64,000 nucleotides of DNA, from NCBI GenBank assembly GCA_002269645.1, contig NIVC01000757.1, forward strand, positions 385,127 to 449,126. The letters are read 5' to 3'. Below the pieces are notes generated by a model. The model was not told the DNA's origin. It made no database searches and saw only the letters and a list, made by a program, of their open reading frames with translations. Shown piece after piece: positions 3,071-64,000 of this stretch. The position numbers and the translations under genes are program-made. This DNA is from Macrostomum lignano (Eukaryota). Each line of letters opens with the position of its first letter. The stretch's first letter is position 1.

Positions 3071-4624
3071 GCTTTTTCATTGCTATCTTACACTAATTTA
3101 ACTAATGCTACACAATCAATTGGGTAATAGAGTCGGATCACACGACATTCTGTGCGCTCTTCGAATTGTGGGTCTGATCTTCAGGCCCAAACACGTTCAA
3201 GAGCCTTCTTCAAGTAAACTTTTGACAGGAGTCAAGCTTTTAAAATTATTGATGTCGTTGGTGTCATGGATGATGCATATTTTCCTTGGGCTTTTACCCT
3301 GAAAACTGTCCAAAGCTATTTTACATGATCATACAAATGCATATACAGCGTCAATATAGTACACTGTTTAGTACACTTTATGCTCGAATAATAGCAGAGC
3401 AATAGTCGCCTGGATTGCATGGCAACCGTGTTTTATAGCTGCTGCTTCTTAATTTCATAGTGTTGCTTTAAGTTGCGTAGATGCAGTCTGTACTTGCTTT
3501 GTTGTAAATATTTTATCCTACTCCAGTTTCAATGCTTTTCCTGTTAATTTGGCTTGCAGGTGTTCCGTGTTGATACTCACAAATGAGTTTTTGCTTTGCA
3601 CCTGATATTTTATGCAGTTCCCTCTTGAAAGTTTATGTTCCCAGGCATAATATCCCACGAGTACTTTTCCTAAACATCCTAAAATATCTTGACCTATCTA
3701 TAATTTCGAACTCCATACATGAAAGGAGTTGAAATTTTTTTATTGGCTCCCTAAAGGCGATTCCATAAACAACAGTTTCATAGAGATTTTCTCTTATTTC
3801 GAATAAATATTTACGTCAGCCGAGCAGAAAACAAGTCTATATATTCATTCTAAGACCAGTTAATCCCTGCTAGCCGAAGAGTATTTCATTTTAAAGTACA
3901 GGTAGCAACTGGACAACTCATTAAAAATTCAGGTATACGGATGTGTCCCTACACGGCTATATACGACTTGTTTATTTGCACGAAAAAATCAATCGCCCTT
4001 GCTCATATTTGTGGCCCTAATTATGTGTGGAATGAATCAACGTGTCTGAAGGCCGCACCGCATACGCTTGTGGTTTCTAAGTTGAAAGGCAAGATGAAAG
4101 GCCTAATTAAGAAATCTGTTTTTTATTTTGATTATCATCCCCTCAATTCCTTGAAATTCAACTTCAAAATGGACGAGTTAACCGTGACAATGGGCTAATT
4201 CAACTCGACGTGTGCCTGTGTCGCAACCACGGTTCGGGCACAGGGAGCGTTCTTCATCTTTCGTTTCAGGCTGTTTCCGGAAGCTGAATTGAGGTTTAAT
4301 CTCTGGAGGAATTTGACTTATGATAGAGCGGCTTTTCCCTGTCATTAACTCCATCTCTGTACCTGCAACTGTCAATGCAGCCGTGCGTAACTTGATTAAT
4401 ATAGCTTTTGGCAGCCCATTTGGGCCTACGCGCATTGAATTTAATCCAAGATACGTTTGCCAATGTAATGAAGCTTTTGTCTATGGCAGCAAGGCTGGCA
4501 CAGCAGCATTTAATTTGGTCCAACAAGCATCAAATTGGTCCACAGCTTCATTTAAAATTGCTGCGGAGGAGCAAGATCAGCCCCAGAATTGTAGACCATA
4601 TGCTAGGCTTTTGAACAAATGCCA

Positions 4625-18300: not shown

Positions 18301-21007
18301 ATGGGGATCAAATCCTCATGATTTCTATTGGAATTGGATCAAATCCTCATGATTTGTATTGGAATGGGATCAAATCCTCATGATTTCTATTGGAATGGGG
18401 ATCAAATCCTAATGATTTGTATTGGAATGGGGATCAAATCCTAATGATTTGTATTGGAATGGGATCAAATCCTCATGATTTCTATTGGAATTGGATCAAA
18501 TCCTCATGATTTGTATTGGAATGGGATCAAATCCTCATGATTTCTATTGGAATGGGGATCAAATCCTAATGATTTGTATTGGAATGGGGATCAAATCCTA
18601 ATGATTTGTATTGGAATGGGGATCAAATCCTCATGATTTCTATTGGAATGGGGATCAAATCCTAATGATTTGTATTGGAATGGGGATCAAATCCTCATGA
18701 TTTGTATTGGAATGGGATCAAATCCTCATGATTTCTATTGGAATGGGGATCAAATCCTAATGATTTGTATTGGAATGGGGATCAAATCCTAATGATTTGT
18801 ATTGGAATGGGATCAAATCCTCATGATTTCTATTGGAATGGGGATCAAATCCTAATGATTTGTATTGGAATGGGGATCAAATCCTCATGATTTGTATTGG
18901 AATGGGATCAAATCCTCATGATTTCTATTGGAATGGGGATCAAATCCTCATGATTTCTATTGGAATTGGATCAAATCCTCATGATTTGTATTGGAATGGG
19001 GATCAAATCCTCATAATTTCTACTGGAATTGGATCAAATCCTCATGATTTGTATTGGAATGGGGATCAAATCCTCATGATTTCTATTGGAATTGGATCAA
19101 ATCCTCACGATTTCTATTGGAATGGGGATCAAATCCTCATGATTTGTATTGGAATGGGGATCAAATCCTCACGATTTCTATTGGAATGGGATCAAATCCT
19201 CATGATTTCTATTGGAATTGGATCAAATCCTCATGATTTCTATTGGAATTGGATCAAATCCTCACGATTTCTATTGGAATGGGGATCAAATCCTCATGAT
19301 TTCTATTGGAATTGGATCAAATCCTCACGATTTCTATTGGAATGGGGATCAAATCCTCATGATTTGTATTGGAATTGGATCAAATCCTCATGATTTCTAT
19401 TGGAATTGGATCAAATCCTCACGATTTCTATTGGAATGGGGATCAAATCCTCATGATTTCTATTGGAATTGGATCAAATCCTCACGATTTCTATTGGAAT
19501 GGGGATCAAATCCTCATGATTTCTATTGGAATTGGATCAAATCCTCATGATTTCTATTGGAATTGGATCAAATCCTCACGATTTCTATTGGAATGGGGAT
19601 CAAATCCTCATGATTTCTATTGGAATTGGATCAAATCCTCACGATTTCTATTGGAATGGGGATCAAATCCTCATGATTTGTATTGGAATGGGGATCAAAT
19701 CCTCACGATTTCTATTGGAATGGGGATCAAATCCTCATGATTTGTATTGGAATGGGGATCAAATCCTCATGATTTCTATTGGAATGGGGATCAAATCCTC
19801 ACGATTTCTATTGGAATGGGGATCAAATCCTCATGATTTGTATTGGAATGGGGATCAAATCCTCACGATTTCTATTGGAATGGGATCAAATCCTCATGAT
19901 TTCTATTGGAATGGGGATCAACTCATTGTGTTTCTTCGATATGTATGTACCAATGTTTTTAATGCAGAGAGTCACAAAGATCTTATGGGTAATAAATATT
20001 CAAATCTGATTCACAAGCCCGTAAGCCGATGCGAGGCTGCAGCTGTACCAACCTCTACAATTTTAACGCTGCGATCTTTGCAAGCCAGAACAGGAAGTTT
20101 TGTGCTCGGCAGGACCAAGATATCATTGATCACTTCAGGACAGAGCAGATAGCCCTGATCTTTCAAGTCCTTGAAGTGCGAAAACGAGGTATTTCCAGCC
20201 ACGTATAGGTCGGACAGATTGCTGATTGCTCTAGAAATAAAAATGCGCGATTTTTTGCGTTAGTAATACTCTAACTACTCTACTAGTAGTAGAAAGAATG
20301 ACAATTAAAAACATAAAAATCTTACATTGAGCGAATATTCTCGGTCATATTAGTGTCAAACTGGACGAATTGCTTGCCATTCCGTGAGAATCCGCGGATC
20401 TCTGAGCCGGAGGCTACAAAGATTCGATCCCGGGACTGACCATCCTTGCCGGCCAGATCAACTCGGGTGATTTGTTTGCTCAGGGGCTGGCTGAAGACCG
20501 ACTTTAAAGTTTATTTGCGGGAAGATATTTAAACGAACATGGTGATGAAAGTTGAAAATTCTTTCGAGAACTACTCATTTATTATATTGAGTGGGTAATT
20601 GACTAATAGTATGATGATTCTGCTAATTAATTTAAAAATGTAACTCCTTCAATCCTTACCTTTGGCTCGTTTGATTTTAGTGAGTAAATGCTGAGAGCTC
20701 CATTTCTGTCACCAATGCAAACCTGAATACATCAAATAAAAGTCGTTATTAATTGTTATTATTATTATGTCAGATGCATTACTATAGATTTTCCAAAGTG
20801 AAAGCAAGATAACAATCTTACTTTTTGAAGACCATCAGAACCTGGTGGCAGAAGTTTCATGCAATTCCTTGTCGTTACTCCAACCTAAAATAAAAACAAA
20901 GTGTATTCCAATGTGTTGGAATTTATTTTATATACTACTATGAATCATAAAAAAGTTTTAAAATTGCTGACCTGAAGATAGTCCAATCTTGAAAAGTTTA
21001 TGTCCAT
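7747..21007 (-). CDS. BBS7: Bardet-Biedl syndrome 7 protein (BBSome subunit), 12 exons
   Basis: Exons joined by GT-AG boundaries give a protein colinear with vertebrate BBS7: [12 protein letters not shown] (21007-20972), [13 protein letters not shown] (20884-20822), VCIGDRNG (20722-20660), [20 protein letters not shown] (~20500-20326), [13 protein letters not shown] (~20230-20050), [26 protein letters not shown] (~17940-17607), [13 protein letters not shown] (~17090-17004), GWIFGLT (~13730-13618), [19 protein letters not shown]...LLATYR (~13012-12718), [20 protein letters not shown]...KEATKRKI (~10675-10222), [12 protein letters not shown] (8699-8474) and [14 protein letters not shown]...FFEAE* (~7880-7747). 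Confidence 0.95.
7965..8462. repeat. Two adjacent 21-bp minisatellites (GATGATTGAGTAGACACTAGA x~10; GATTGAGYAGACGCATGATAA x~10) in the last BBS7 intron
   Basis: Read directly; the two units share the core GATTGAGTAGAC. Confidence 0.95.
8818..10052. repeat. Minisatellite, 20/21-bp unit (AGTGCAGCCATAGACACACA), ~60 copies
   Basis: Read directly. The long ORFs called over it are repeat artefacts. Confidence 0.95.
10760..11178. repeat. Minisatellite, 34-bp unit (AAAAATGAACTCTATGTACAGTGTTTTGTGTACT), ~12 copies
   Basis: Read directly; period 34. Confidence 0.95.
11570..11752. repeat. Dispersed ~185-bp repeat (second copy at 37891-38076)
   Basis: Both copies share GCTAAGCGAGGCTACATCTCTGAGG, TTATTGCCGGCCGTTA and GGGATTGGATAGGATCT in the same orientation. 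Confidence 0.8.
12225..12690. repeat. Minisatellite, 33-bp unit (GGAGAGCGGAGAGCCAGATTCAAGGATCTTGGT), ~14 copies
   Basis: Read directly; 11-codon periodicity keeps several frames open. Confidence 0.9.
15090..15487. mobile_element. Helitron/Helentron-like non-autonomous element with internal AT microsatellite
   Basis: The motif TATATACCAAGGACAACT occurs several times in both orientations around a (TA/TAA)n tract. The right end reads CACAGACAAATCATTTTTAGTATATGGACTAG, a CTAG terminus. Confidence 0.4.
16439..16953. repeat. (TCAG)n microsatellite, ~128 units
   Basis: Read directly. Confidence 0.98.
18083..19925. repeat. Minisatellite, 31/32-bp unit (GGGGATCAAATCCTCATGATTTCTATTGGAAT), ~58 copies
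   Basis: Read directly; lies in BBS7 intron 5. Confidence 0.95.
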
Positions 21008-50886: not shown

Positions 50887-51158
50887 AGTAGTATAGAAAA
50901 AGACGCTTCTAGACCCAGAGCACTTTTTTAATGACCGTTTTAAGGGTCTAGAGGGGGGACACGGGGGGGTAAATAAAAAAACACATCTAAACACCCTTAA
51001 CACATCTAATCACCCATAATCACCCCTAACAATAAAAATCACATCCCAACACATCCAAACACTCCCCAACACCCCCCTCGCGTCCCCCCTCTTAAGACCT
51101 TACAAACGGTCATTAAAATAAGGTCTGATCTAGAAGCGTCTTTTTCTATACTACTACT
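50887..51158. repeat. Polinton terminus folded as an imperfect ~85-bp inverted repeat around a G-free spacer
   Basis: AGTAGTATAGAAAAAGACGCTTCTAGA (50887-50913) is exactly reverse-complemented at 51129-51155, and similarity continues for ~60 bp more. Confidence 0.9.
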
Positions 51159-51212
51159 CTATAACCCCTTGCCCGCGCCGCAGGCGCGAAGGGTCTTTTT
51201 CTGTTACTAAAA

Positions 51213-51527
51213 ATGACCCGAGTTTACACCTTTTCTGTTAGTGATACTTTTGAGACTGTTGCTAAAAATGCAGAGATAATAAAACAACATATTTTGAATG
51301 GAATAGTTGATGAAGTTTATTTAAAATATGACGACAAGCACGACCTAAAACTTTATCCATTAGAGCTAGATGAGATGTATGATTTAGAACAAGAGGGTGA
51401 GTTAATATTTCAACTTGGAGATTATTTAAATTCGGATGATTGGGAGGTTAGATCAACAGATTCCGAATCAACAAATAGTTCATATGAAACCAGTGAATCA
51501 GAGAATGAAAGTGAAATTTTTATGTGA
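51213..51527 (+). CDS. Polinton hypothetical acidic protein (104 aa)
   Basis: Open ORF with TAAAAATG start context; no recognisable motif. Confidence 0.6.
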   Translation: MTRVYTFSVSDTFETVAKNAEIIKQHILNGIVDEVYLKYDDKHDLKLYPLELDEMYDLEQEGELIFQLGDYLNSDDWEVRSTDSESTNSSYETSESENESEIFM

Positions 51528-51543
51528 AAAAAATATTTAAAAA

Positions 51544-51798
51544 ATGAACTATTATTCTATAACAGAAACGACATTTATTGTGAAAAATATATATAAAAAA
51601 ATGAAGGTAAATCGAACCCATGGTTCGCGTGCTTTGCACGATTACTCCTACATCGGAAATGTGCCGATTAATGAACTTAATGAAAATTTAAGTTTGATAA
51701 CAGTTGAACAAATGTCAATAATAATATTAGTAACAATTATTGTAATAATATTGTTTTTGTTTGTTATAAAAAATTTACTACCATGTTGTCTTAAGTAA
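51544..51798 (+). CDS. Polinton small membrane protein (84 aa, C-terminal TM helix) carrying an in-frame 30-bp hairpin insertion
   Basis: Hydrophobic IIILVTIIVIILFLFVI segment and A-rich start context. Confidence 0.55.
   Translation: MNYYSITETTFIVKNIYKKMKVNRTHGSRALHDYSYIGNVPINELNENLSLITVEQMSIIILVTIIVIILFLFVIKNLLPCCLK
51613..51640. mobile_element. 28-bp double-hairpin mini-element (copies at 51613-51640, 53113-53140, 57782-57809, 63325-63351)
   Basis: Consensus CGAACC-nnn-GGTTCG-CGNNC-nnn-GNNCG; three copies flanked by AT on both sides; compensatory changes in stem 2. Confidence 0.8.
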
Positions 51799-51808
51799 CT
51801 GATCGAAC

Positions 51809-53416
51809 TTAGTTTGCAGATAATATCTGATTCTCATAAAAAGAACCCAATATTTCTTCACCATCCTTATCAGCAATTATATAGGTTGTAGGATTTGTAT
51901 TTAAAACTTTACTGATGGTAAATTTCTCACTTATCTTCCAATATCCTTTTCTTCCCTTTTCAAACTTATCTTTCCATTTATAGATATAAACAGAATCACC
52001 AACTTTAAAACCTTTAGTTTTCTTTTTTTCAAATTCTCCAAAAGTAACCTTAACATTTTCAGGTTTGTTATAAGCTTGTTGAGGAGTCATCTTTATAGCT
52101 GAATGATATGAATTGTTATAATCTTTCACTACGTCTGGTAATATTTTTACCCACTTTTGGTTACCATTAAGACTAAACTGAAACCATAATTTCTTACCTA
52201 AAGTTCGATTAAATCTTTCTATTAATGCGTTTTTACTCTCTCCATAAATAGAATAAATTTTATTAATATACTCCCCATTCGCGTCTTTTTTCCTTTCTTT
52301 TCCTTTTTCAAAATGATACAATTTATACATATGAGGATTGTAAAATTCTTTTCCTTCATCAACACACAATCTTTCGCTTTTTTCTCCAAGATTTCTAAAA
52401 GCAGCAGCAACCTCCTCTCCTTTTTTGGATTTTAAAGGAACAGCCCACGCGTATCGAGTAAAACCATCTAGTATGGTTAAGATATATTTATATCCTCTTT
52501 CATTTGGCATCGACATTAAATCAGCATACCAAATTTCATTCTTTTTGAAGGTCATGATTTTTCTATAAAATTTAGGTTTTCGGTATTCTTTATGAAGAAC
52601 CTTTGCCTCATCAAAACTTAGCCCACTACCACTTAATAACAAACACTCAACACAATTATTTCCATGTTGGTTGTAATTAATTCCCAAACCAAATTTAACT
52701 TTAGACTGCAAAATCTTTTTAACCATCCATCTAGTTAATTTTTGACCTACCGATAATCCCTGTAGGTTATCTAATCCTTGAATCATTTTTCTATCGGCTT
52801 CATGTTTTAATCTTAATGCTTCCTCGGGTGAGTTCTTATCAGCATCTCTGTATGCTAAGTCATGATAATATGCTAACCAGTCAATACCATTTATTGGAAT
52901 TGAATCAGATTTTGGAGTGTCATCAGGATTTAATCTCAAATCTAAGCGAGTGCCGGGTAGTTTACCCTCAATCTTTCGAATGAGGCTGGAGCACACCTTA
53001 AGCGGCGATAATTACCGCCCATCTCCGTCTGCTCTCTGAACCTTCTCCTTATATTTAAAATACTTAGGAGCTTGGCTGCGCATTGCCACCATGTCTTCAA
53101 GCTTTTTACCATCGAACCATAGGTTCGCGTGCAAAGCACGATTGGGAAGAGGAGTTACCTCTGTTCCTTCAAAAGATTTCTCAATTGAAGTGGTACTTGA
53201 AGCTGTATGACGGGTTTCACGCAATTTGGAGATGTCGCCACAAATAGTGACTAGCAAGGACATTGCCTTCCTCACTCAGGCCACGGGTTAACCTGTGAAG
53301 TTCATTGATGGTAGGTGTAGTTCCCCTGTATATTTACCAGTAGTAAAGATTGGTGGTAAGCTTGTTAATCCTTTTTGAACATCTAACAATCCTCCTTCAA
53401 ACACTATTTGGTTCAT
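51809..53416 (-). CDS. Phospholipase A2 (parvovirus-like, PLA2X)-integrase fusion, ~424 aa, split by a group I intron (exon 1 53416-53291, exon 2 52957-51809)
   Basis: Spliced protein: MNQIVFEGGLLDVQKG...GELHLPSMNFTG|PGTRLDLRL...PINGIDWLAYYHDLAY...HEADRKMI (PLA2 Ca-loop and HDxxY), then rve core WYADLM...ILDGFTRYAWAVPLK...LCVDEGKEF...IERFNRTL, then the Polinton C-terminal FKVGD...FEKG...W...GSFYENQI. Confidence 0.9.
52958..53290 (-). ncRNA. Group I self-splicing intron, IC1-like, 333 nt, no internal ORF
   Basis: Folded by hand. P1 with U.G at the 5' splice site (ACAGGU/GCCUG); P3 CAUCUCC/GGAGAUG; P4 UGCGUG/UGCGCA; P5abc with A-rich bulge and GAAA loop; P6a/b with CCUAAG...UAAGG receptor; P7 G-A(bulge)-GAGCA/UGCUCC after AAGGUUCA and UAAGGUG; P8 GGCGGUAAUUAUCGCC; P9 with GAAA loop; P9.0 AG/CU. 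Removing it restores the frame and the conserved GPGT motif. Confidence 0.92.
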
Positions 53417-53966
53417 TTTTAATAGCCTTAAAAATACATGAAAGCACCAATTGTTTTGCAAACTCTTCAATGGTTGGTTGTTTAACTTTTTTATAGTTAT
53501 TATCTACGCTAGTTAAGTATCTTTTATTTGTCCAATGTTCAGACTTTTTCATCTGATCTTCATCTTTGTAACTAAACGAAGAAGCGGGAATGAAATGATC
53601 AATATCTAAATTTCCAGTATAATCTTTTGAAACATAATATTTTCTTGTGAAATTTAACCAATCAAAAAAGAATTCTTTTGTGCAATCAAGATATGAGATA
53701 TAGTCCTTGTCATTAAAATTTTTCAACGCCCAATTTATTCTATTTCTAATTAAAACAATATGTTTGTAATTATCATCATTGTGATACTTGTTTTTTCTAT
53801 ATTCATTAAATTTATCTTTATTGTTTTTCATCCAAATAGTAGATGAGGTATTATGACAAGATCGACAATCATTTCTAAATTTTTTTGAATCATTTCTCCA
53901 AAAATAAAATTCTTTCGTCATTGGTTTTTCTTGTTTACACTTAATACAAATCTTTTTAGGTTCCAT
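53397..53966 (-). CDS. Free-standing HNH endonuclease with N-terminal zinc ribbon (NCLDV/phage homing-endonuclease type)
   Basis: CIKC...CRSC; basic helical linker; YLDCTKEFF..WL; LDIDHFIPASSF...HWTN..YL...DN..K. The stop codon overlaps the PLA2-integrase ATG region by 20 nt. Confidence 0.8.
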   Translation of the reverse strand: MEPKKICIKCKQEKPMTKEFYFWRNDSKKFRNDCRSCHNTSSTIWMKNNKDKFNEYRKNKYHNDDNYKHIVLIRNRINWALKNFNDKDYISYLDCTKEFFFDWLNFTRKYYVSKDYTGNLDIDHFIPASSFSYKDEDQMKKSEHWTNKRYLTSVDNNYKKVKQPTIEEFAKQLVLSCIFKAIKNEPNSV

Positions 53967-53993
53967 TTTATAAAAAATAAATTTAACAATTAA

Positions 53994-54665
53994 TTAAACT
54001 CCAGTATGTCCAGCAGCTTTCGCAGCAGCTAAAACAAGTTTTCGCGGTGTTTTAAATCCATCACCAACAGCTGGTTTGTTATTTATAGAATTAACAATCC
54101 ATTTATACAAGCTGGTATTTTTAACAGCTCCTCCTAACGCATCATAAAAAATTCTAGCACTTATTAATTCATCCCTAGTATATAAATCAGGGTTAAACTT
54201 TACCCTAGGGTTCATAACAATATTATATGCTCCACCCAATTCTGTATATAGTTCATTCCGATTTTTATCAACTCCACCAATTCGATAATTATTATTACCT
54301 AAATCTGTAACAGCAATACTAGTTGGTGCAGGTCTCGGATATTGTTCAACTCCACCCCTAATCTCTTCACGTCTAATTTCTGCAACTCTAAATATTGCTT
54401 GATCAGTCTCATAAGTAGGCGGCTCATCTAAAAGTTCATCCTCTTTTGGCTCAGTATTTTTAGCAATTTTTTCCAGAAGATCTTTATCTGTTTTTTCTAG
54501 TTCACTAATTTTCCCAGTAATAGGCTTAACAAAAGGAGCAGCAAATCTTTCACCAGCTAATTGTATTCCTAACTTTCTTTTTTGTAAATTTCTAACAAAA
54601 TCAGAATATCTTTGCTTCTCTTTATAAATCGCTAACTCTCCATCAACGTCCATAAATTGACTCAT
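53994..54665 (-). CDS. Polinton hypothetical protein (223 aa)
   Basis: Intact ORF divergent from the capsid gene; coiled-coil-like N-terminus with FVKPIT. Confidence 0.7.
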   Translation of the reverse strand: MSQFMDVDGELAIYKEKQRYSDFVRNLQKRKLGIQLAGERFAAPFVKPITGKISELEKTDKDLLEKIAKNTEPKEDELLDEPPTYETDQAIFRVAEIRREEIRGGVEQYPRPAPTSIAVTDLGNNNYRIGGVDKNRNELYTELGGAYNIVMNPRVKFNPDLYTRDELISARIFYDALGGAVKNTSLYKWIVNSINNKPAVGDGFKTPRKLVLAAAKAAGHTGV

Positions 54666-54699
54666 TTTTTAACATAAAAAACTTTTTTAACTTAAAAAA
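54665..54699. promoter_or_regulatory. Putative bidirectional promoter/initiator between divergent genes
   Basis: The spacer is two copies of TTTTTTAACWTAAAAAA, each self-complementary, running directly into the CAT on one side and the ATG on the other. Confidence 0.5.
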
Positions 54700-56171
54700 A
54701 TGGCTGAAACAAAAACTATGTGGAGTGATAAATTTCATTTCAAAAAGCACCGACAGTATATTAATGAGGTCAGAGCAAGAGATTTAAATTATACCCTACC
54801 AACAAGTGATAATTCAAATAACTTTACTACTGGAACGGTAACTTTTGACATCGGCGCAACCAACACTATATTGGATATGAAAAATGCATTTTTCCGTGTT
54901 AGATGGTTGTATACTAGAAATGATGGAACTGCTCTTGCAGCCGGAGATATCGCAGATCGATCCGGAATAATAATAGAAAATGATTGGTTTTATAAATGTT
55001 TTTCCCAAGCTCAACTAACTGTTAATGGTGCTGAGGTTGAGACATCATCAAACCCCGCAGAGATTAATGGAGTTTTGAAACATTTAAATTATACTTATTT
55101 ATCAAAACAAGTTGGTGATAATGTTGGGTGGATGCCGGATAAAGGTAACGGTCAAGCAGTAGTTTTCCCTAATGTACAAAACGCAGCCGGTGCAGATACT
55201 GCAGCGCTAATTGTTTACCTTAATACAAACATAGTTCCAGTTGTAACCACTATGACTAATACAAAAGATATTAATACTGGTTTTATAGATCGTCAGAATA
55301 AATTCCCAGTCGCGGTTTTAACCACAGCAACAGCATATGAGCAGGACTTTTCAATCTTTCCACTATTTGGGTTTTTCTCACCAAATCGGGTATGGAAAGG
55401 ATTAAAATTTGGGATACAGTTGCAAATATCTGGTGGATATCAGCCTAGGATACTTTATGGAACCTCAATTTCAACCGATATAGCAGTTCGTATAGATTCA
55501 ATTCAATTAGTCGTACCAACTATTGAGGTAACAGCCCCACTTTTAAAACACATCGATAATCAGTTAACGCATGATCAGGAAATATTTTATTTGAATCGTC
55601 GACATTTTATGCGAACCATTAATAATAACCAGGATTCATTCCAGTGGCAAATACTGACATCAAAACGTCGGGTGAGATATATTTTTGTTTGGTTTAAGAT
55701 AACAAATAGAAGGAGTAAAAGAGCAAATGGGGATTTATATTGGCTTCAATCCGGTGCCATAGCAGAACAAGCAGCCACCGCAACAGACAATGCGGCTGCA
55801 GCTATTAACGAGTTTAATGTTCAGAATATCCGCCTGCAGGTTGATGATCAATATTATCCGGTTAAAGACCCCTAAATTTAAATATAGCAAATAATAATGT
55901 TAATGATTTTATAAAATATTATCAAGATTATGCTAAAAATGAAGCGTATGCCGTCCCTCAGTACACACCCACAGAGTTTCTAAACATTCATCCAGTGGTT
56001 GTTTATGATCTAACGGCACAGAAAGAAAACGTAGCCAATATTGGACTTAATTATATGTTAGAGATTAATAAAACTGGTAATCAGGCACTTGACGCCCACG
56101 TATTGTTTCTAGAGGAATATATGTCAATTGCTAAAGCTGATGGCACGATTGTTCGGGACGCCCCGCTGTAA
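54700..56171 (+). CDS. Major capsid protein (double jelly-roll, hexon-like); one frameshift at ~55868
   Basis: F.I...N..LDMKNAF...FSQAQL.VNG.EVE; DQYYP then, in the -1 frame, PLNL...YYQDY...EF....PVVVYDL..Q.E...AHVLF. Confidence 0.8.
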
Positions 56172-56220
56172 GCGGCGCAGGTCTCCGACCGTCGCGCCTA
56201 TTTAAATTATTTCTTTAAAA

Positions 56221-56981
56221 ATGGTAAAGGCAAAACACGATAAGATATTTCCAAATGATCCTTTTCTTTGTTTAGTAATCGGAGGATCAGGTAAAGGAAA
56301 AACACACTTTGTTTACGATTTATTAACAACAGATGGAATGTTAGACTATAATAATTTAATAATTTATACTAATAAACCTAGAATAAAATATTATGAATTT
56401 CTTAAACATGGATTAAAAAACAAATTAAAAAAAGATGTCTTGTTTAGAATGTTAAGAGCATATGAGCAATATGAGGATGATGACGAACCGCGATTTAACT
56501 CGATGACATTGAGGATTTATGTAAAACAATGGCACAACAGCCAGAAAACATCACCGAACGAGCTCCAACTGTTAGAGTATCAACCCGATTAGCCTATGAT
56601 CAAATTCCAAAACATGATAAAACACTAATTATTTTTGATGATTGTATTAATGACGGTGATCAAGAATTGCAAAAGGAAATTTTTGTTAGTGGTAGAGGAG
56701 ATGGAATTGGAGCTTTTTATCTAACACAGTCCTTTAGAGAATTAGAATCGATTATAAAAAAGAATGCAAGTTGTTGTGTAATGTTTGATTTAGATAATTA
56801 TGATTTACAAAATATTCACGCTAGATTTAATCCCGGGTTGGATGCAAAACCATTTAAAAGTATGTGTAAAAAAATTTGGGATGATAGCCAATACAAACAT
56901 ATTTATATCAATCCGAGGTTAGAAAGGAAAAATCGAATCTTAAAAGATCTTATAAAAGAAGACGATGAGGAAGAAGAATAA
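56221..56981 (+). CDS. A32/FtsK-like genome packaging ATPase; frameshift at ~56495
   Basis: Walker A LVIGGSGKGKT; Walker B LIIFDDC; GR..GIGAFYLTQS...IIKKNA. Confidence 0.9.
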
Positions 56982-56996
56982 TTTCCCACTATAAAA

Positions 56997-57780
56997 ATGA
57001 CTACAAATTTAGATACTATAAAACAATTGGTAGATCGAACTAATTCAAAATTTAGTACAACATTACAGTTTATAATGACAACCAGCGAGCAACGGATTCA
57101 ATTGCGCGATCCATTACAACTTGATCAAAGCCTAAGTTATCAAATAGGTTTAATACTATTTTCGGTTTTTAACATGCCTCAATTAATTAATGCAACAAAT
57201 AATCAATTTAGATATTCTAAAGATTCCGGAGCCAATTGGACAACATTTAGCGTTAACCCAGGAGCGTATAGCTATACTGATTTGAATGCTTATATAGAAG
57301 GAGAATTAACAACTAATGGAGATTGGGTATCAGGCGCAATTGTTATAGGGTTGATTTACCGTCTGGCAGATTCACACTATCACTAGGATCCGGATATCAG
57401 GTTGATTTCACAATTGCAAATTCACTCAGAACCATACTTGGATTTAATTCCCGAATAGTTACCACATCAAGCACCGGAGATACAGTGGAAATATTGAGGG
57501 TGGAGTTAATACAATTAATATAACAACCGACATATCAAACGGTGGTTATATAACAGATAATAATGGAGTTTTGGTTCAACGTGGAATTATTTATTCAATC
57601 CCATTTCTTGCTGTTCCAATTGGAGAGAAAATGATTGTATCACCTCAAACCCCAATATATTACCCATTAAATCAATATAATGTTCAATCAATTTATATTA
57701 GGATTGTAGATGAAAGCGATAGATTAATAAGTTTTGGTGGGCAGTCAATAACAATAATTTTACGTATAAAACAGGTTTAG
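56997..57780 (+). CDS. Minor capsid protein (penton-like); two frameshifts
   Basis: L.DPLQL...YQIGL..F...N...NN.F.Y...W......GAY...DLN; LGF; IYSIP...VP.G.K.IVSP..PIYYP...I.IRI.D...I.F.G. Confidence 0.8.
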
Positions 57781-57824
57781 CCGAACCAAAGGTTCGAGGA
57801 CTTTGTCCGTTTCCTATAGTAAAA

Positions 57825-58004
57825 ATGGGTAATAATAATAATAATTTAATAAAAAAACAATCAGAAAAAGTTAAAAAAGCTGAAGATAATTACGAACTAG
57901 AACTAGCAAAATTAAGGCAGTTACAAGCTGATAAAATAAGAAAGGAATTGTTAAAACCCACACCTACGAAACTAACTAAAACCAAGAGTTTTTCAGGAAC
58001 ATAA
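57825..58004 (+). CDS. Small basic protein (59 aa, starts MG)
   Basis: Translated by hand; TAAAAATG start context; sits between penton and protease; below the ORF-track cutoff. Confidence 0.5.
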   Translation: MGNNNNNLIKKQSEKVKKAEDNYELELAKLRQLQADKIRKELLKPTPTKLTKTKSFSGT

Positions 58005-58005
58005 A

Positions 58006-58438
58006 ATGACCATGACGTGGGATGATTTTAAACAAAGATATGGAACGACACAACAAGCAATATCGAATTAACAAATTGGGCGAGGCAGTTAAAAATAAAA
58101 CCATTCAGATGTGTTATGCGGATGAGATAAAAGACTTACCAAATATGGATGTTTCATTGTTAATATTGAAACAACAAAAGAAAATGGTGTTCATTGGTCA
58201 GCAGTTTATTCAAAACCAAAACTTGTTTATTTTTTTGATTCATACGCGCTTCCTCCGTTACAGGAAATAAAAGACAAATTTAATCATACTAAAAATCGTT
58301 TATGTGGAGATCATCACGAACAATTTCAAACATTTGATAAAAGTTATTGCGGGCAGCGCGTTATATTTTTTATATAAAATTAATAACTCGAAGGAAAGAC
58401 CCGAAGACTTTAGGGGTATTTTAGACTCTATAAAATAG
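58006..58438 (+). CDS. Adenain-like cysteine protease (capsid maturation), frameshifted
   Basis: Reconstructed across frames: CFIVN...NGVHWSAVY...YFFDSY..PP...QFQ.FD.SYCGQ, giving the catalytic H, D, Q and C. Confidence 0.8.
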
Positions 58439-58447
58439 ACAGTAAAA

Positions 58448-60493
58448 ATGTTATTTTCTGGAACACCCTCATGGAACGGAACAACAAGTAGTGGTGGTGG
58501 TGGCACATCTGGTGGAATAAGTGTTACATTTGGAGATAATCGATATATTAATGAAGATGAAGGTTATAAAAAAAGTGAAGTTGATACTAAACTAAATTTA
58601 AAAAGAAATGTTGCAGATTCCTATACTAAAACTCAAATAGATGATTCACTAAATCTGAAACGGAACGTAGCCGATTCCTATACCAAAACCGAAGTTGATA
58701 ATTCATTAAATTTAAAACGCAATACAGCCGATTCTTATACCAAAACAGAGTTGATAATTCATTAAATTTAAAAGAGATATAACGATTCTTATACCAAAAC
58801 CGAAGTTGATAATTCATTAAATTTGAAACGGAACGTAGCCGATTCTTATACCAAAACCGAAGTTGATAATGGATTAAATTTAAAAAGAGATGTAACTGAT
58901 TCTTATTCTCGAACTGATTCTGATTCACGTTATGTTCAAACCACCGCAACCGGAAACCTAGATATGAGCAACAACCGAATTATAAATGTTTCAATTACAA
59001 CTAGTGATTCAGTGGTTGATAAGAACTATGTCGATAATCAAGTTGCCACTCGTAGTGGTAATATTAATATGAATAATTTTAAATTAACAAATTTATTATT
59101 TGGAACAGAGAACGCAGACTCGATAACTCTAGGCCAAGTAAACGAGCGAGCTAATGCAACCGACGCCGATATTTTTACCACGCCGCTTACATCAAATACT
59201 TCAAATCCTGATGTTGTTCTTACAGCATCTGAAAATGGCAACACAGCTTTTCGAGTTGGAGATGGAAGCCTTGCGACACAATGGTCACCAAATACCGGAA
59301 CCACAACCAATATGGAAATTCAATTTGAATTTTTAGGTTATAATAGAAGAATATTTGAATTAAGAATTACAGGCAGTGAAACAATTGAGATACCCTCGGG
59401 GTGGTCGGTTCGCGCAAAAAATGTTGCTACCGATTCATGGACGACATTAACTACGTCGGGATCACCAGTTCAAGCAACATCATTTGCTCTATCTAATTTA
59501 ACGACTAATTTTTGGAAATATTATAGCGTATTCTTCCCAACTGGTGGTACCGGTACACAACCTATCGAGGTTCGTCAAATACAATTATTTGAACACCGTG
59601 TTGAAATTCAAGATCTTAATTGGCCAACTCAAATACTTTCTGCAGTTCCGCGAGCGTACGTAGATCAGCTAGCTACTCCAACATCAAATGGTAGAATGTC
59701 TGGAAGCGATAAAAATAAATTGGATGGAATACCTGCTATTGATGCGGCCTTGTTCGAACCAGTAATTTGCAATTGGTCTGGATATCAAAATCCAACAACC
59801 GCCGGAGATATATATCCAGTCGGTTCTTTAATTAGCGATGCTTCTTATATCGATTATCAAAACGGCGCTAGAATTACTCGTGAAACTTCTGGAGTAAGTG
59901 GTGCTTTACAATTCAATTTCACACATTTTCAAAATATATCTGCGTCTTTCTTTTTCCGAGTTGCTAATTCTACAGGAGATGGTGCAGATGCGGTTTGGTT
60001 TTATGCATACTGTCACGAACGTCCAACATCGGAATTTGGAACTGGATTATCAACCGACGCCGGGCTGATAGTGTTTGCTAGTGAGTGGACTGATAGGTTT
60101 GGAGTTGTTTGGAGTAATAAAAAATCAGACGGATCTACGGTTCGTAACGATGTTAGTAGTGATGCGGATCAAACTGTAGCCTATGCTAATATTGATAACG
60201 GTGATTGGCATTTATTTGAAGTTAATATTTTAAATCAAAGGGTTTGGTACCGATTACAGTCATACAATGTTGCTGGTGATTCTTTTACCCTCATTGGACA
60301 GAACGTTTTCACATATGATAGTGGAACTTGGGGAACTTTAGATAAATCTGGAACCCTTATGGGTTTTGGTGCTCGAACTGGTGGAGCGGATGCTGCACAT
60401 TTTATTCGTGGTGCAGTTGTATGTGGTAGTACGTCGTTTGGTTATGTTTTTCCCTCTACTGCTTATTTGGAAAAACCTCCTACTCAAATATAA
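58448..60493 (+). CDS. Fibre/receptor-binding-like protein: 19-aa repeats, fibre-stalk motifs, discoidin-like domain, C-terminal legume-lectin-like domain
   Basis: ORFs 58448.. and 58823.. are in the same frame, with three 1-bp losses in repeat 4. YTKTEVDNSLNLKRNVADS x6; NMNNFKLTNL..GT...D...LGQV; ATPTSNGRMSGSDKNKLDGI; GDGADAVWF...GDWH...GFGARTGG...H.I. Confidence 0.7.
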
Positions 60494-60524
60494 AATATTT
60501 ATATATAAAATATTTCTATATAAA

Positions 60525-60851
60525 ATGGCTTTTAGTAGAACTCCATCGATGCGGCAAAATAATGTTATTATTCCTATTCCTAAACAAGAATCAAATATAA
60601 AAACATTCAAATCTCATACCAAATTTTTATTTAGTACTGTAAATGTTCAGGATAATAAGAAGCTTCAAGAATTAATTAAGTTATTAAAAAATCATATTAT
60701 ACTTCAAGAGTTTTGGAAAATAGGATTTAAATGGGAGAAAAAAGAAAGAATAACTCCAATACAATACCTATTGAGCTCGGGACAAATCCCCAAAGAGCGT
60801 GGGGAATTCATTTTGGTGCTATTAAAAATAGACGAGAATGTCGGTATCTGA
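60525..60851 (+). CDS. Polinton hypothetical protein (108 aa)
   Basis: ATG in TAAAATG context at 60525, within ORF 60366..60851. Confidence 0.5.
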   Translation: MAFSRTPSMRQNNVIIPIPKQESNIKTFKSHTKFLFSTVNVQDNKKLQELIKLLKNHIILQEFWKIGFKWEKKERITPIQYLLSSGQIPKERGEFILVLLKIDENVGI

Positions 60852-61505
60852 AGCAGATAAATGGGAACGCGACCGGTTCAACCAACGTAAAGGTCAGATG
60901 TTAAGTAATGTTGATCGAATAAATTATGATTATGATTTATATGCTAAAAAAGTAAGAAGAGTTTCAAACCATATAAGAAATATGGATTTTTCAATATTGG
61001 ATTTGGAAGCTTATCAATGTTATGTGTAATCGTTTTAGGTATTTTACAATCTATTCCAACTCTTAATTTATCTCAATTATTTTTAGGTATTTCAATTGGC
61101 TCAATATCAGGTTTTGAATTGATCAGGAACTTATCAATACTTTTAGCAATTAAATTATATCTTAAAAAAAGAAAGGAAAAATATAAATCATTAAGAGATG
61201 TTGCAAGCAATATAAAAATCAATTATATTTATATGTGCAAAAAATATTGGATGACGGAGAGATAACGATTCATGAATTATCAACCGCGGTTGAATTATAT
61301 GAAAAATATTTAAAAGATAGAAATAGAATTTTAGATGTTGAAACTTTTACCGATATGGAATTAAAAGAATTACGTTGGACAAACCCAAAGCTCCACCTAT
61401 AGAAACATTAGGTATTTACGAACCTGAAACTATTGCTACTGGGGCACAAAGCCCACGGTCAGGAAGTGCTGTAGAACTTAGTTGTTTAATTTTTTAATGC
61501 ATATG

Positions 61506-61967
61506 TTATATATTCTTCCCAAAGTGGTAACTCTCTTCTGATCTAGGTTTAAATTTTTTATCAATACATAAAAATTCCAATGACTTTTTCAATAACATTT
61601 CGTTAGGTATGTTACCTATCCTTATAAACTTTGTATTCTCTCGAATAAGAAAATTGAAATAATATCCAACTAAAATTAAAATCCTTTCAGAGTCTTTCGA
61701 ACTTAATCCCTTTCCTTTATTTAAATGGAAAAAGTTATTATATAAATAAACATTATTTCCGGGAATTAAAATTGGATCAGAAATGTCTCTTGTAAGATTT
61801 CTTAAAATTGTGTTTTTAAAATAGTAATATGAGTTTTCAATCTTTTTTGTTTTTTCAAATTGATATATTTTAGAACATGAATAACACATATGATATATAT
61901 CTCCGTTTGCTGTTTGCCCTCTGTGCATAGTCACATTACATTTATTACAAACATAAATGTCTTTCAT
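61506..61967 (-). CDS. Polinton hypothetical zinc-ribbon protein (153 aa)
   Basis: CNKC...CYSC at the N-terminus; divergent from the next ORF with a 26-bp spacer. Confidence 0.65.
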   Translation of the reverse strand: MKDIYVCNKCNVTMHRGQTANGDIYHMCYSCSKIYQFEKTKKIENSYYYFKNTILRNLTRDISDPILIPGNNVYLYNNFFHLNKGKGLSSKDSERILILVGYYFNFLIRENTKFIRIGNIPNEMLLKKSLEFLCIDKKFKPRSEESYHFGKNI

Positions 61968-61993
61968 TTTTTTGTTATTTTTTTAGATTAAAA

Positions 61994-62287
61994 ATGGAGA
62001 GCTGGTTCAAAACCGATTCTAATGTGATTAATTATCTCACACCCAATATGTTGGAGAATAAAGAATATAATATTATATGTTTGAGACAGGTTAAATTTAT
62101 TGGGCTTCAATCAATATTTTTACAATTAGATGGGCAAAAAATTTTATGTCTAAGCGGAGATGATGTTAAAAATTTTCCTGTTTTAGTTATTAATAAACCT
62201 AAAGCGTTTGTTATGAAATACTGCAACGAGGGTGGATTGCAATTTAAACTAAAACAAAAAATAATAAAAAGAGTGATAGGACTGTAA
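61994..62287 (+). CDS. Polinton hypothetical protein (97 aa)
   Basis: Intact ORF with TAAAAATG start. Confidence 0.6.
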   Translation: MESWFKTDSNVINYLTPNMLENKEYNIICLRQVKFIGLQSIFLQLDGQKILCLSGDDVKNFPVLVINKPKAFVMKYCNEGGLQFKLKQKIIKRVIGL

Positions 62288-62726
62288 AATTGGCGGCTGT
62301 TTGGGAGGATGACCGAATAAGTTTAAATTTTTTATAAGAAAATGGAGACGATAAAAATCCTTATCACTAAAGAGCGTGAACTTAATGATATTAATAAAAA
62401 AATAAATATAATTATATCTCAGAAATATCATGAGTATGGGGACGATATGTTTCCCATCCGATATGATAGATAAAAGAAAACGTTTTTACAAGCAATTTTA
62501 TGCTGAAATAGTAATTGAAATTGAAATAGATAGTTGGTTAGAAAAATAAAAAAACTTAGGAAAAAAATAAAGGATTGTTTAAGTTACCCTGCCGACTGTG
62601 AGGATAATTGGTGCTCAATAATATATGAAATTGAAGTTAATGATTTGCTCAAACAATTACATGCTTTAGTTTTTTTCAGTAATTTTTCTGTTAATCTCTT
62701 CCAGTTATTCAAGACTTTTTCCTTAT

Positions 62727-64000
62727 TTAATTTTTTATATCTTTTTCATATTCTAGAAATGTATTATATTCACAATCACATTCGGATTCACAATCACAAT
62801 CGTAATAATAATTATTTATTGCCTCTTTGTATTCATTATATTTACTTATTATATCTTCTTTTTGTTTTTTATCTTTTATCATATTTTTTATCTCTTCTTT
62901 TAAACCATATGGATATGTTTTAATTTTATCATCTAAATATCTTTTATCATCAAATGGACTTAATGTTTTTTTATCTGTCTCGATGACAAACATCTGATGC
63001 TTATCTGAATTTAATCGATATTGTGGAGCATGATAATTTTCAATTGTATTAAGGTAATCTAAAAGTACGTTTTTATAATCATCAAATGTTATCTTTTTTA
63101 CTGCTGCTCTTGATACCCTTTTATTTTTTTTACCTCTCCCTCCTGTCCTAAAACTTAAATGCATAGCATTTTGATCTTATTGCTATAAACTCGGTTATGA
63201 TTTTGCTATTTAATTCATCTTTCATTTTAAGTACAACTTTTTATTTTGATTCGATTTTAAGGATGGTTATCCGGATAGTCGAGGTCCAATGTATCCTTAA
63301 TTTTTTCCATATCTTTATAGACATCGAACTTTGGTTCGCGGGCTTTGCCCGATCCTCTGTTTCAACCTTAAATACCAAACTGTCGGTGTCTGCATATATT
63401 GGATAGTTATCTGGCCATGTTTTATTTATAACATCATAATAATATTCATACATTACTAGCTTTGCAAATCTAAAACAACCATTCCAATAAATATTGGTTT
63501 AAGAAATTTTGTTGTTTTATTTCTCATATGAATACCCATAAAGTTATCATCAAATTTTATAAAGTCTTTAAAGTTAGGTTTTGAGAAATATTTCTTTGCT
63601 TTATCAATATCCTTTTCTAAATGGAATTGGGTTCTATCTCTAATATTTTCAACCGTTTTTCCATAAAAAGCATTATTCATTAATTTCCAATAATCTTTCT
63701 CAAAATTTGTTTTTGACATCTGTCTCTGATTTGAATTAAAGTCAATATATTTAGCTAACCAATCTTCCTCAATAAACGATATTGTTCGATGTACTTTAGA
63801 CACTTTTAATCCCTGTTTTCATAAAATTGTAGAAGCTTATAATGCACTACATAGTTTTTTTATCATGTAAATTTAATATTAATTTTTTTGTTGCTAGATG
63901 TTTTGCATTATCTGCTTTAAGATAATCTTTTGTGTTTGTGATAAATCATCTTCATTAACTGAACAATGCTCTGGAGCTAAAGGATATTTATATGTTTTTG
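62727..64000 (-). CDS. polB: Protein-primed family B DNA polymerase, C-terminal part (frameshifted, 5' part outside window)
   Basis: YPLAPE; KLILNLHDK; motif B YWKLMNNAFYGKT; KPIFIG..VLDL; motif C YADTDS; terminal KTLSPFDDKRY. Confidence 0.92.

Follow-up and report, generated by a model that had tools for sequence, protein, structure and literature searches.

The Polinton at one end of a 64-kb stretch of Macrostomum lignano DNA (hereafter the window) carries several copies of a 28-nt double hairpin, which raises the question of whether these copies are a mobile element in their own right or a signal that serves the Polinton. The host element has the Polinton/Maverick set of terminal inverted repeats, pPolB, rve integrase and A32 ATPase; its jelly-roll capsid and protease genes are assigned by size, order and earlier labels, and the capsid ORF has no family match. 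Its left terminal inverted repeat (50887..51195, strand not applicable) is found again, inverted, at the far end of other copies. A PLA2-like and integrase ORF follows on the minus strand (51809..52996; Pfam rve E 1.8e-7, PLA2-like E 0.02), and contains three unit sites in other copies.

A pattern search and a pairing check confirmed the four window copies reported in a preliminary description, which turn out to be members of a far larger family. All four are on the plus strand. Unit A (51613-51640; 51611..51642 with an AT on each side) is 28 nt long and lies in frame in ORF 51544-51798; unit B (53113-53140; 53111..53142 with an AT on each side) lies inside a group I intron of the PLA2-integrase gene. 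Both are perfect 6-3-6 plus 5-3-5 double hairpins. The intron, on the minus strand, is placed at 52967..53254 by the extent of its Rfam match, so its ends are approximate (RF00028, E 4.6e-12); its 55.5 bits against a gathering score of 50 indicate a match to the catalytic core above threshold, and B occupies the long insertion that follows the P5 stem. At the gathering score, RF00028 had no match in eight other loci. Unit C (63325-63351; 63323..63353 with flanks) is 27 nt long and lies antisense in PolB, just past motif C; like A and B, it has AT on both sides, as first reported. Unit D (57782-57809; 57780..57811 with flanks) lies directly 3' of the penton stop, with the outer pair of hairpin 2 mismatched and with GC and TT as flanks.

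Two further features had been missed. A half unit of the hairpin-2 type, with one mismatch (51804-51816, plus strand; from 51802 with the preceding AT), overlaps the end of the integrase ORF and is probably an old remnant; its perfect form is seen in 10 places. A lone hairpin-1-type motif (51174-51188, plus strand) lies at the inner end of the terminal inverted repeat and was found 37 times in the segments examined; at the equivalent position, a related Polinton family carries a full unit plus a third hairpin.

When we scanned the window with a 28-nt pattern, allowing up to two mismatches and taking the expectation from 100 shuffles, we obtained four matches against 0.00 expected. Three of them are A, B and D; the fourth, at 4222, is in host DNA and has an unpaired second stem. 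C escapes this pattern because it is 27 nt long. No unit in the host part of the window (1-50880) passed the pairing filter, in agreement with the absence originally claimed. The claim that insertion is codon-neutral fails at C, where the window's PolB frame is broken; of the 14 copies examined for this site, the other 13 have units of 28 nt. Because single-base frame breaks are numerous in the assembled window Polinton, the 27 nt of C may reflect an error, a point that speaks for assembly artefact or chance as the source of the units. Across the genome, however, a first pattern gave 244 matches against 9 for its control and a wider pattern gave 478 against 27, and both allele types, filled and empty, turn up again in short-read contigs from four runs of four different studies. 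Pattern-versus-control counts and short-read contigs together refute artefact or chance for the family as a whole, and we regard this explanation as extremely improbable.

Each of the 270 units examined, which form 57 site clusters, is carried by a Polinton, a Polinton derivative or a single satellite, and none (0/270) lies in host DNA. One perfect unit was also found in an unrelated Polinton-type metagenome contig. The units are about 60% GC in a Polinton of 30% GC, and the same 28-mer occurs at five site clusters. Since the copies are related and recombining, the number of sequences does not give the number of events. The shared order on the plus strand holds for the window copy only; in other copies units point either way, with respect to genes and within arrays.

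Empty alleles were found at 37 of the 57 site clusters and are shorter by 30 nt per unit. The empty-site alleles sought in the preliminary description exist for all four window copies. The A site (31) has 7 filled and 14 clean empty alleles (6 AT, 8 AC), with both filled and empty short-read contigs; the B site (18) has 9 filled and 18 clean empty alleles, and the exon motifs lie 333-334 nt apart in five copies and 300-304 nt apart in five others. At the C site (6), 14 copies are filled and 1 is empty, and the D site (4) is filled in 14 copies, in several variants, with an empty form in other samples; for D, empty alleles exist but a clean +30 difference is not given. Outgroup PolBs have an exact 10-residue gap at C in 14 of 14 cases. 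These data show that the insertions are the derived state. Positions are not fixed among relatives, many of the 57 site clusters being private. We observed presence or absence at many unrelated sites, a fixed unit length and exchange of modules between units, including hairpin-2 swaps at 12 site clusters, and mobility of the unit is well supported.

We then weighed the possibility that the unit is a useful Polinton cis-signal (a terminator, processing site, origin or packaging signal) that spread through its benefit. Many sites lie at gene ends or starts, units or half units provide the stop codons at PolB and integrase ends in some copies, and the hairpin-1 motif of the terminal repeat's inner end is close to fixation. 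The sites are, however, polymorphic, often private, in both orientations, and found within PolB, integrase, ATPase and an intron. Units are tolerated in open PolB frames, insertion occurs in frame in conserved proteins, and ten amino acids are often added to a gene without breaking its frame. Moreover, none of the 45 mapped sites falls in the bodies of the capsid, penton, fibre, ORF223 or nuclease genes, which hold 41% of AT sites (these regions were chosen post hoc); clustering at gene ends is the residue expected of purifying selection. The cis-signal reading is thereby weakened for the dispersed copies and is improbable overall, although the terminal-repeat hairpin may still be such a signal. 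The original proposal of an ultra-small Polinton parasite, ten codons long and tolerated in ORFs, is instead supported by the empty alleles, the absence from host DNA and the unfixed positions. The map of tolerated and avoided sites amounts to a natural insertion scan of Polinton proteins.

Does the unit act as DNA or as RNA? Both stems covary strongly among the 107 distinct 28-mers: pairs 4-12, 18-26 and 19-25 are Watson-Crick in 103, 103 and 102 of them, with mutual information of 1.46, 1.36 and 1.07 against shuffle maxima of 0.16, 0.12 and 0.15. Selection acts on both stems. Stem 2 changes are compensatory, as noted earlier; hairpin 1 also varies and covaries, contrary to the earlier picture. 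The two strands are predicted to fold equally well (-7.8 and -7.9 kcal/mol), and the loops, which come as reverse-complement pairs, are GNA or its complement in 58 and 43 of the 107 variants; GNA triloops are a DNA feature. Certain C and G positions are invariant, and a C-T mismatch is kept in 23 of the 107. End-to-end inversion is limited to CG..CG (ATCG..CGAT with flanks), a terminal repeat of at most 2-4 bp. An RNA route, by reverse transcription, by a group I ribozyme or by removal of the unit as a tiny intron, has been proposed for Allomyces elements and yeast GC42 (accessible parts of PMC2800124 and PMC4478555), and two unit sites do lie in a group I intron, namely B and one in the intron of a related family. 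Against this route, the unit ends lack splice signals, a unit removed by splicing would have no need of strict frame keeping, the two strands fold in the same way with 3-nt loops, and reverse transcription by a host enzyme should have left copies in host DNA. We consider it very improbable.

The junctions are informative as to how the unit enters DNA. Tandem arrays have AT at 25 of 25 unit junctions, although 24 of the 25 neighbor pairs are unlike variants and 5 are in opposite orientation, and 185 of the 270 units have AT..AT flanks. The proposed 28-bp unit with a 2-bp duplication fits AT targets; at non-AT targets the AT is brought by the unit. At site 39, two different units occur as AT..AA, the nearest empties having AA and the same next four bases; AC targets at site 33 became AC..AT, AT..AC and AT..AT; and a TT target at site 12 became TT..AT. 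The element partly brings its own AT, and non-AT targets yield XY..AT or AT..XY junctions. Exceptions are AC..AC in 8 of 270 units and, at site D, GC..TT, AT..TT and AC..TT. The sites are biased towards CG-AT-CG: empty targets have G at -3 in 12/37 and C at +3 in 13/37, against a background of about 18%, and the new bases of filled alleles include G at -3 at 5/7 sites and C at +3 at 4/5; flank conversion towards the donor context was observed.

Such conversion could arise with no dedicated enzyme, if PolB switched templates at AT micro-homologies, copied the unit from another genome copy and dropped off once the new strand folded; quasi-palindrome correction would then give compensatory changes and loop flips. 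Template switching explains confinement to co-replicating genomes, loop flips, half units, the hairpin-2 swaps and flank conversion towards the donor. It predicts variable lengths, yet 267 of the 270 units are 28 nt (partly a consequence of the detection rule), every array junction is exactly AT and even the non-coding intron site differs by about +30. In addition, the invariant C and G and the retained mismatch suggest recognition by a protein over symmetry alone. We judge switching by PolB quite unlikely.

We propose instead, giving it an even chance, that the unit is a 30-nt non-coding, non-autonomous mobile DNA moved by a Polinton Endo VII-type nuclease and copied during Polinton replication. 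The mobile unit would be the 28-nt double hairpin plus an AT coupling dinucleotide. Protein-primed strand displacement would expose single strands in which the unit may fold, as DNA, into a two-arm junction; a Polinton-encoded beta-beta-alpha-metal Endo VII-type nuclease, either the free ORF or the PolB domain, would cut CG-AT-CG-like junctions and relaxed AT-like targets, leaving 2-nt AT ends. These self-complementary ends could join or copy the unit in, in either orientation; at an imperfect target both junctions would be heteroduplex and would segregate as XY..AT or AT..XY. The unit would spread by copying among replicating Polinton-type genomes and then be inherited with integrated copies, and at ten codons it would survive in loops and gene ends and be purged from structural gene bodies.

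Among possible movers, the Polinton integrase is unlikely; duplications of 5-6 bp would be expected of it. We infer that Endo VII-type nucleases are the best candidates, with a Rep_trans-like nickase as the rival. Such an enzyme is available in cis, since the Polinton has both a free-standing Endo VII/HNH-type ORF next to the intron (53397..53966, minus strand; phrog_1035 endonuclease VII, E 9e-7) and an Endonuclease VII domain in its type of protein-primed PolB (3' part at 62727..64000, minus strand, continuing past the window; PF02945 at 28 bits in a natural PolB copy, against a cut-off of 23.6). The free nuclease is 49-99% identical among other copies and keeps its D-H motif in the 16 of 18 matches that show the motif region. 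According to the accessible text of PMC10956419, T4 Endo VII makes its nicks, most of them 3' of T, at Y-junctions, bulges and mismatches, and that of PMC6083498 lists homing and restriction endonucleases among Endo VII-motif proteins but gives no 2-nt overhang for Endo VII-type enzymes. The domain is not diagnostic, because it is common in PolBs that lack the unit: the translated unit pattern was found in none of the 120 type-1 relatives. The free nuclease, which lies beside an ORF-less intron as with F-CphI, may serve intron homing alone, and a 28-bp duplex fragment would be a short ligation substrate.

The rival nickase comes from a foldback satellite (L131/L132), the only non-Polinton carrier found, which has a unit in frame. 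On this model a Rep_trans-like tyrosine nickase encoded by the satellite would excise the single-stranded unit as a 30-nt dumbbell circle with a CG-AT-CG junction and transfer it beside an AT-like target on either strand, the unit being a miniature origin mimic; IS200/IS605 and Helitrons provide the model mechanism. A closed 30-nt circle is predicted to retain both hairpins (mean -3.9 kcal/mol), and single-strand transfer without duplication would naturally yield XY..AT and AT..XY. In an alignment of 28 relatives, the satellite's 1004-aa ORF keeps D80, D86, R130-K132-Y134-K136 and R181-E183 invariant. Its structural model is confident (pLDDT 83), with TBP as the best fold (Z 8.3, rmsd 2.3, 79 aligned, such Z being common) and, among viral structures, inovirus G2P at rank 4 (E 5.7e-3). 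Rep_trans proteins have the fold of TBP, a tyrosine in a YxxK motif and origins that form hairpins (accessible part of PMC13107129). Among the invariant residues of the satellite protein, D80, D86 and E183 are candidates for the three acidic metal ligands of a Rep_trans enzyme. However, the satellite protein has no Pfam, PHROG or PDB sequence match and no Foldseek PDB match with E < 0.001, its motif is YNK (Y134-x-K136, two residues apart) rather than YxxK, it is encoded at only two genomic loci, one of them decayed, and its unit may merely mark the satellite as a target. We therefore hold excision by this nickase to be unlikely. The larger claim, dumbbell-circle transposition between families and in Polintons of more than one animal, as a third tier in the series host, Polinton, satellite and mini-element, is rather unlikely; if true, it would describe about the smallest enzyme-mobilized transposable element and extend to animals the Rep_trans family, which PMC13107129, in the part accessible, describes from bacteria, with a sister family in archaea.

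By whichever route it moves, the 30-base unit is among the smallest mobile elements seen, and animal Polintons carry a mobilome of their own: a group I intron, a free nuclease and a mini-element. Exchange of this mobilome between Polinton families implies co-replication outside the chromosome. A literature search, with most subscription papers beyond its reach, returned no description of such an element in Polintons.

Several known systems resemble it in part. IS200/IS605, REP-RAYT and Helitrons have hairpin-defined ends, single-strand chemistry, a short target word and no true duplication; the present element consists of two hairpins only, its candidate helpers are Endo VII-type or Rep_trans-like, and no HUH enzyme was found for it. 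Parvoviral T-shaped terminal hairpins share two short GC arms and 3-nt flipping loops, but they are fixed genome ends and the insertions here are dispersed; the likeness may be convergent. How the yeast mitochondrial GC clusters and the fungal double-hairpin elements (DHEs) move is a question decades old. It is left open in the accessible parts of PMC4478555 and PMC2800124, the former proposing intron endonucleases as movers of GC clusters. Here the replicon measures 18 kb and offers few candidate enzymes; together with dozens of paired filled and empty sites and junctions that follow a legible rule, this brings the question within reach of oligonucleotide assays.

Rickettsia palindromic elements (RPEs) and bacterial MITEs are likewise hairpins that sit in frame in conserved proteins and in RNA genes, near-neutrally; RPEs, as described in the accessible part of PMC2229807, are single long stem-loops of 105-146 bp with 12-bp terminal repeats in bacterial chromosomes, whereas our unit, at 28-30 nt, has two short hairpins and lacks the terminal inverted repeats of at least 7 bp and the length of ~100-200 bp that mark MITEs and RPEs. 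The likeness to GC clusters and DHEs is one of shared features. GC clusters (GC42 and others) are also short GC-rich palindromes in an AT-rich replicon, with presence/absence alleles, changes mainly in loops, merger and shuffling of units and co-conversion of flanks; their 2-nt flanking repeat is AG rather than AT, and they are mostly intergenic (PMC4478555, accessible part), whereas many of our units are in frame in genes. GC clusters are mitochondrial and the present unit resides in nuclear-integrated animal Polinton-type elements or a satellite (270/270), with a fixed 6-3-6/5-3-5 shape, 30 nt, fully covarying stems and a dinucleotide that it carries. DHEs of chytrid and Schizosaccharomyces mtDNA, as far as the accessible parts of PMC10085805 and PMC2800124 describe them, are likewise two adjacent GC-rich hairpins, dispersed, potentially mobile and also found inside structured RNA genes, but they have been described only from fungal mitogenomes and are mostly intergenic; those of Allomyces are reported to lack a flanking duplication (PMC2800124, same part). 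Here AT targets show an apparent 2-bp duplication, but at non-AT targets the AT comes with the unit. The unit thus behaves like the GC clusters of yeast and the DHEs of fungi, but within a DNA virus-like element of an animal.

The preliminary description had placed four copies of a 28-nt double hairpin in the window, and we found all four where it put them, against 0.00 matches per shuffled window. Copies A (51613-51640, in ORF 51544-51798) and B (53113-53140, in a group I intron) are perfect double hairpins with AT flanks. Copy C (63325-63351, antisense in PolB) is likewise a unit but measures 27 nt, and it stands at a break in the PolB frame of the window copy; copy D (57782-57809, directly 3' of the penton stop) is a unit with one outer mismatch and the flanks GC/TT. 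In the 764-Mb genome, the form first described gave 244 matches, against 9 for a reversed control. After more stem variants had appeared in a scan of fetched copies, we made a wider pattern, CGNNCCNNNGGNNCGCGNNCNNNGNNCG, which gave 478 matches against 27 for its control. Because class searches of the genome returned 244, 174 and 129 matches, we estimate the family total at roughly 500 units. A class ending GCGCGCCGAGCG is left out of all unit counts: it belongs to a distinct 9-kb foldback derivative, as its terminal repeat, and by manual count makes up 30 of the first 100 of the 478 matches. The pairing filter also removed three chance-like matches, which lie on C268 and C392.

We fetched 831 kb in 139 segments from 127 contigs, hand-chosen from the listed matches, among them 60 stretches that mostly surround isolated matches, a non-random sample of about half of the family. 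The flanks of 239 of the 270 units match the window's Polinton family; 15 units lie in a second family, which shows 66% identity across the integrase region, and 13 in Polinton derivatives or a second PolB type. Three match no other reference: one is a terminal-repeat copy whose class recurs on two other contigs, and the remaining two lie within the arms of the satellite, a foldback element. None of the 270 falls outside Polinton-type elements or the satellite, and thus none is in host DNA, just as the preliminary description had noted no copy in its 50 kb of host DNA. We hold it very probable that we are dealing with a mobile element restricted to such replicons.

The last 13 kb of the window cover the left portion of an 18-kb Polinton with a terminal repeat at 50887-51195 and genes for an rve integrase, an A32 ATPase and PolB, whose relatives include sequences with animal names. 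In several natural copies, PolB frames that contain one or two units remain open for 1,000-1,300 codons, as expected of an insertion tolerated in ORFs, and such frames occur in both PolB types. These types are unrelated and are found within one Polinton family (L119:2292-5702 (-) versus L047), one with an Endo VII domain that the other lacks, a situation also reported from nematode Polintons. Many single-base frame breaks mark window 50887-64000 and most other copies, and short-read contigs differ from it by single bases at several positions; part of these breaks may be assembly error. A fibre-like gene contains 57-nt tandem repeats (58565-58906) whose number varies among copies. In the host part of the window, one ORF is CUB-like (weak, E 0.097), which, with the animal names among PolB relatives, points to an animal host, and a minisatellite at 18121-19840 has a period of ~31-32 nt and a 6-bp hairpin.

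The first 747 kb contained 200 units, arranged in 175 arrays, which we grouped into 57 site clusters; a few of these clusters divide what is one site. We found that 37 of the 57 have empty alleles, 30 nt shorter per unit, as identified by fuzzy flank matching, with some empties distant. Each of the four window sites, A to D, also exists as an empty allele, as the proposed mobility predicted, and contigs of other samples hold site A both filled and empty and site D empty. The filled state at C is derived, because 14 of 14 outgroup PolBs show an exact 10-residue gap. The distance between the exon motifs of the intron is 333-334 nt in five copies and 300-304 nt in another five, indicating that the 30-nt step holds even where frame is irrelevant. 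Five site clusters share one 28-mer. Beside these results, the reading of the unit as a cis-signal appears very unlikely. The bodies of the capsid, penton, fibre, ORF223 and nuclease genes, picked after the map was seen, contain 0 of 45 mapped sites, though 41% of AT sites lie there, which we read as purifying selection. Copies of a second Polinton-related family, on C67, C219, C716 and 11 other contigs, are 98-100% identical in their flanks, a similarity that suggests a recent burst, and every examined copy has a unit at site B.

Among 107 distinct 28-mers, variable stem pairs are Watson-Crick in 102-104, with three or four pair types each, and their mutual information lies far above that of shuffles, although the 28-mers are related and hence not independent events. 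For pair 3-13, a common C-T variant lowers the number of paired 28-mers to 71. Types of hairpin 1 and hairpin 2 occur in free combination, and 12 site clusters hold more than one hairpin-2 stem at a single place. A hairpin-1 motif also stands at the inner end of the terminal repeat (51174-51188); at this place a related family (C1075, C273, C1391) has a complete unit and, in addition, a third hairpin. The hairpins at this place are either the element's source or an old insertion that became fixed. The window's motif at 51174-51188 recurs in the terminal repeats of L086-L089, ~9-kb non-coding Polinton derivatives that are almost fully palindromic and have AGTAGT ends. In some copies, the integrase or PolB frame ends at a stop codon that lies in a hairpin loop (window 51804-51816; L047 near 2283).

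The flanks are AT..AT in 185 of 270 units. Plain AT duplication fails at some sites, as does a plain 'T...A blunt insertion'. Where the empty allele lacks AT, the target word is kept at one junction and AT stands at the other: AA targets become AT..AA (with two different units), TT targets TT..AT, and AC targets AC..AT, AT..AC or AT..AT. Exceptions are AC..AC (8/270), site D, and site 3, where AT..AT occurs alongside 12 empties that lack AT. In the targets, G at -3 (12/37) and C at +3 (13/37) exceed the background of about 18%, pointing to the unit's own junction, CG-AT-CG, as the preferred word. New bases in filled alleles are G at -3 in 5/7 and C at +3 in 4/5, small numbers in which all five G changes are transitions. 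Closing-stem perfection was ruled out as the cause of G at -3, since +3 is often not complementary. Array junctions are exactly AT in 25 of 25, joining different variants in 24 and opposite orientations in 5; arrays thus grew by new insertion, not slippage. Copying by enzyme-free template switching strikes us as improbable. Together, these data demonstrate that Polinton-type DNA acquires, at new AT-like sites, copies of a fixed unit whose structure is under selection.

The unit would act as folded DNA, because both strands fold equally, with GNA-type loops on either strand, and because loops also appear as reverse-complement pairs. Contigs of four sequencing runs, three of them only presumed to be RNA, cover the whole element at even depth and so are uninformative on expression or splicing; no joint precisely removing A, B, C or the intron was among the rows listed. 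We give a route through RNA hardly any credence. In our favoured scheme, to which we assign about an even chance, an Endo VII-type nuclease would cut and joining would proceed via self-complementary AT ends. The Polinton has two Endo VII-type modules, a PolB domain and a free ORF beside the intron (53397-53966 (-)) that diverges fast and keeps its D-H motif; T4 Endo VII nicks Y-junctions, bulges and mismatches (PMC10956419). Against such a mover, the PolB domain is often present in the absence of any visible unit, and the free ORF fits collaborative intron homing of the F-CphI kind (PMC6083498). The group I intron itself (52967-53254 (-)) has no ORF, lies in a PLA2-integrase gene of an animal Polinton and adjoins this nuclease, the arrangement of collaborative homing; the second family, only 66% identical around the intron, has it too. 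An Rfam search of 8 other loci gave no match at gathering score.

The strongest rival, itself unlikely, is a putative Rep_trans-like nickase of the unit-carrying satellite L131/L132 (G000:C1500:206300-217000), a 12-kb foldback element that is flanked by tandem repeats, has a decayed copy on C578 and contains an ORF of 1004 aa whose core resembles Rep_trans. Invariant residues of its protein are D, D, R-K-Y-K and R-E, its model resembles a TBP fold, and an inovirus G2P is among its top viral structure matches, all at modest scores; it has no match at the sequence level and is encoded at only two loci of the genome. A protein atlas search with the ORF gave no usable match. The ORF has 32 relatives, some from insects, and the satellite is possibly an undescribed eukaryotic rolling-circle family.

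We also looked for units outside this genome. Of 120 metagenome matches listed, one pairs at all 11 positions; on a 524-nt contig of 37% GC, it has AT on either side, reads as ten residues inside an ORF and lies just upstream of a PLA2-type ORF like the Polinton's (11/26 identical). This copy, on one short contig and not from a survey, is a good lead for units beyond this genome. The other 119 lack full pairing and are nearly all GC-rich, and L204, from the same scan, is an unrelated repeat. Five matches of an IMG/VR pattern scan were all on 60-66% GC contigs and lacked the paired shape. A second scan gave 13 matches, one fully paired (L116:2001-2030), the lone copy on an AT-rich, phage-like contig with bacterial promoters; we judged this look-alike unconvincing and probably convergent. 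No relative of the Polinton capsid was found in IMG/VR. A translated-pattern scan of 303 proteins (225,030 residues) gave one strict match, P0154, 93% identical to the window's family and probably from the same species; relaxed matches stayed at shuffle level.

We conclude that the element is real and mobile and that its mover enzyme is an unproven candidate. It is apparently undescribed in Polintons: we found no description in the literature searched, although supplements of Polinton papers might contain such insertions without remark, and the available part of a report of HNH in pPolB2 mentions no hairpin, palindrome or stem-loop (10.1101/2023.08.22.554363). Since the replicon differs, the unit is not counted as a member of the yeast GC clusters, the fungal double-hairpin elements or the Rickettsia elements. 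It works like yeast GC clusters (PMC4478555) and fungal double-hairpin elements (PMC10085805, PMC2800124), and it has in-frame tolerance in common with the Rickettsia elements (PMC2229807).
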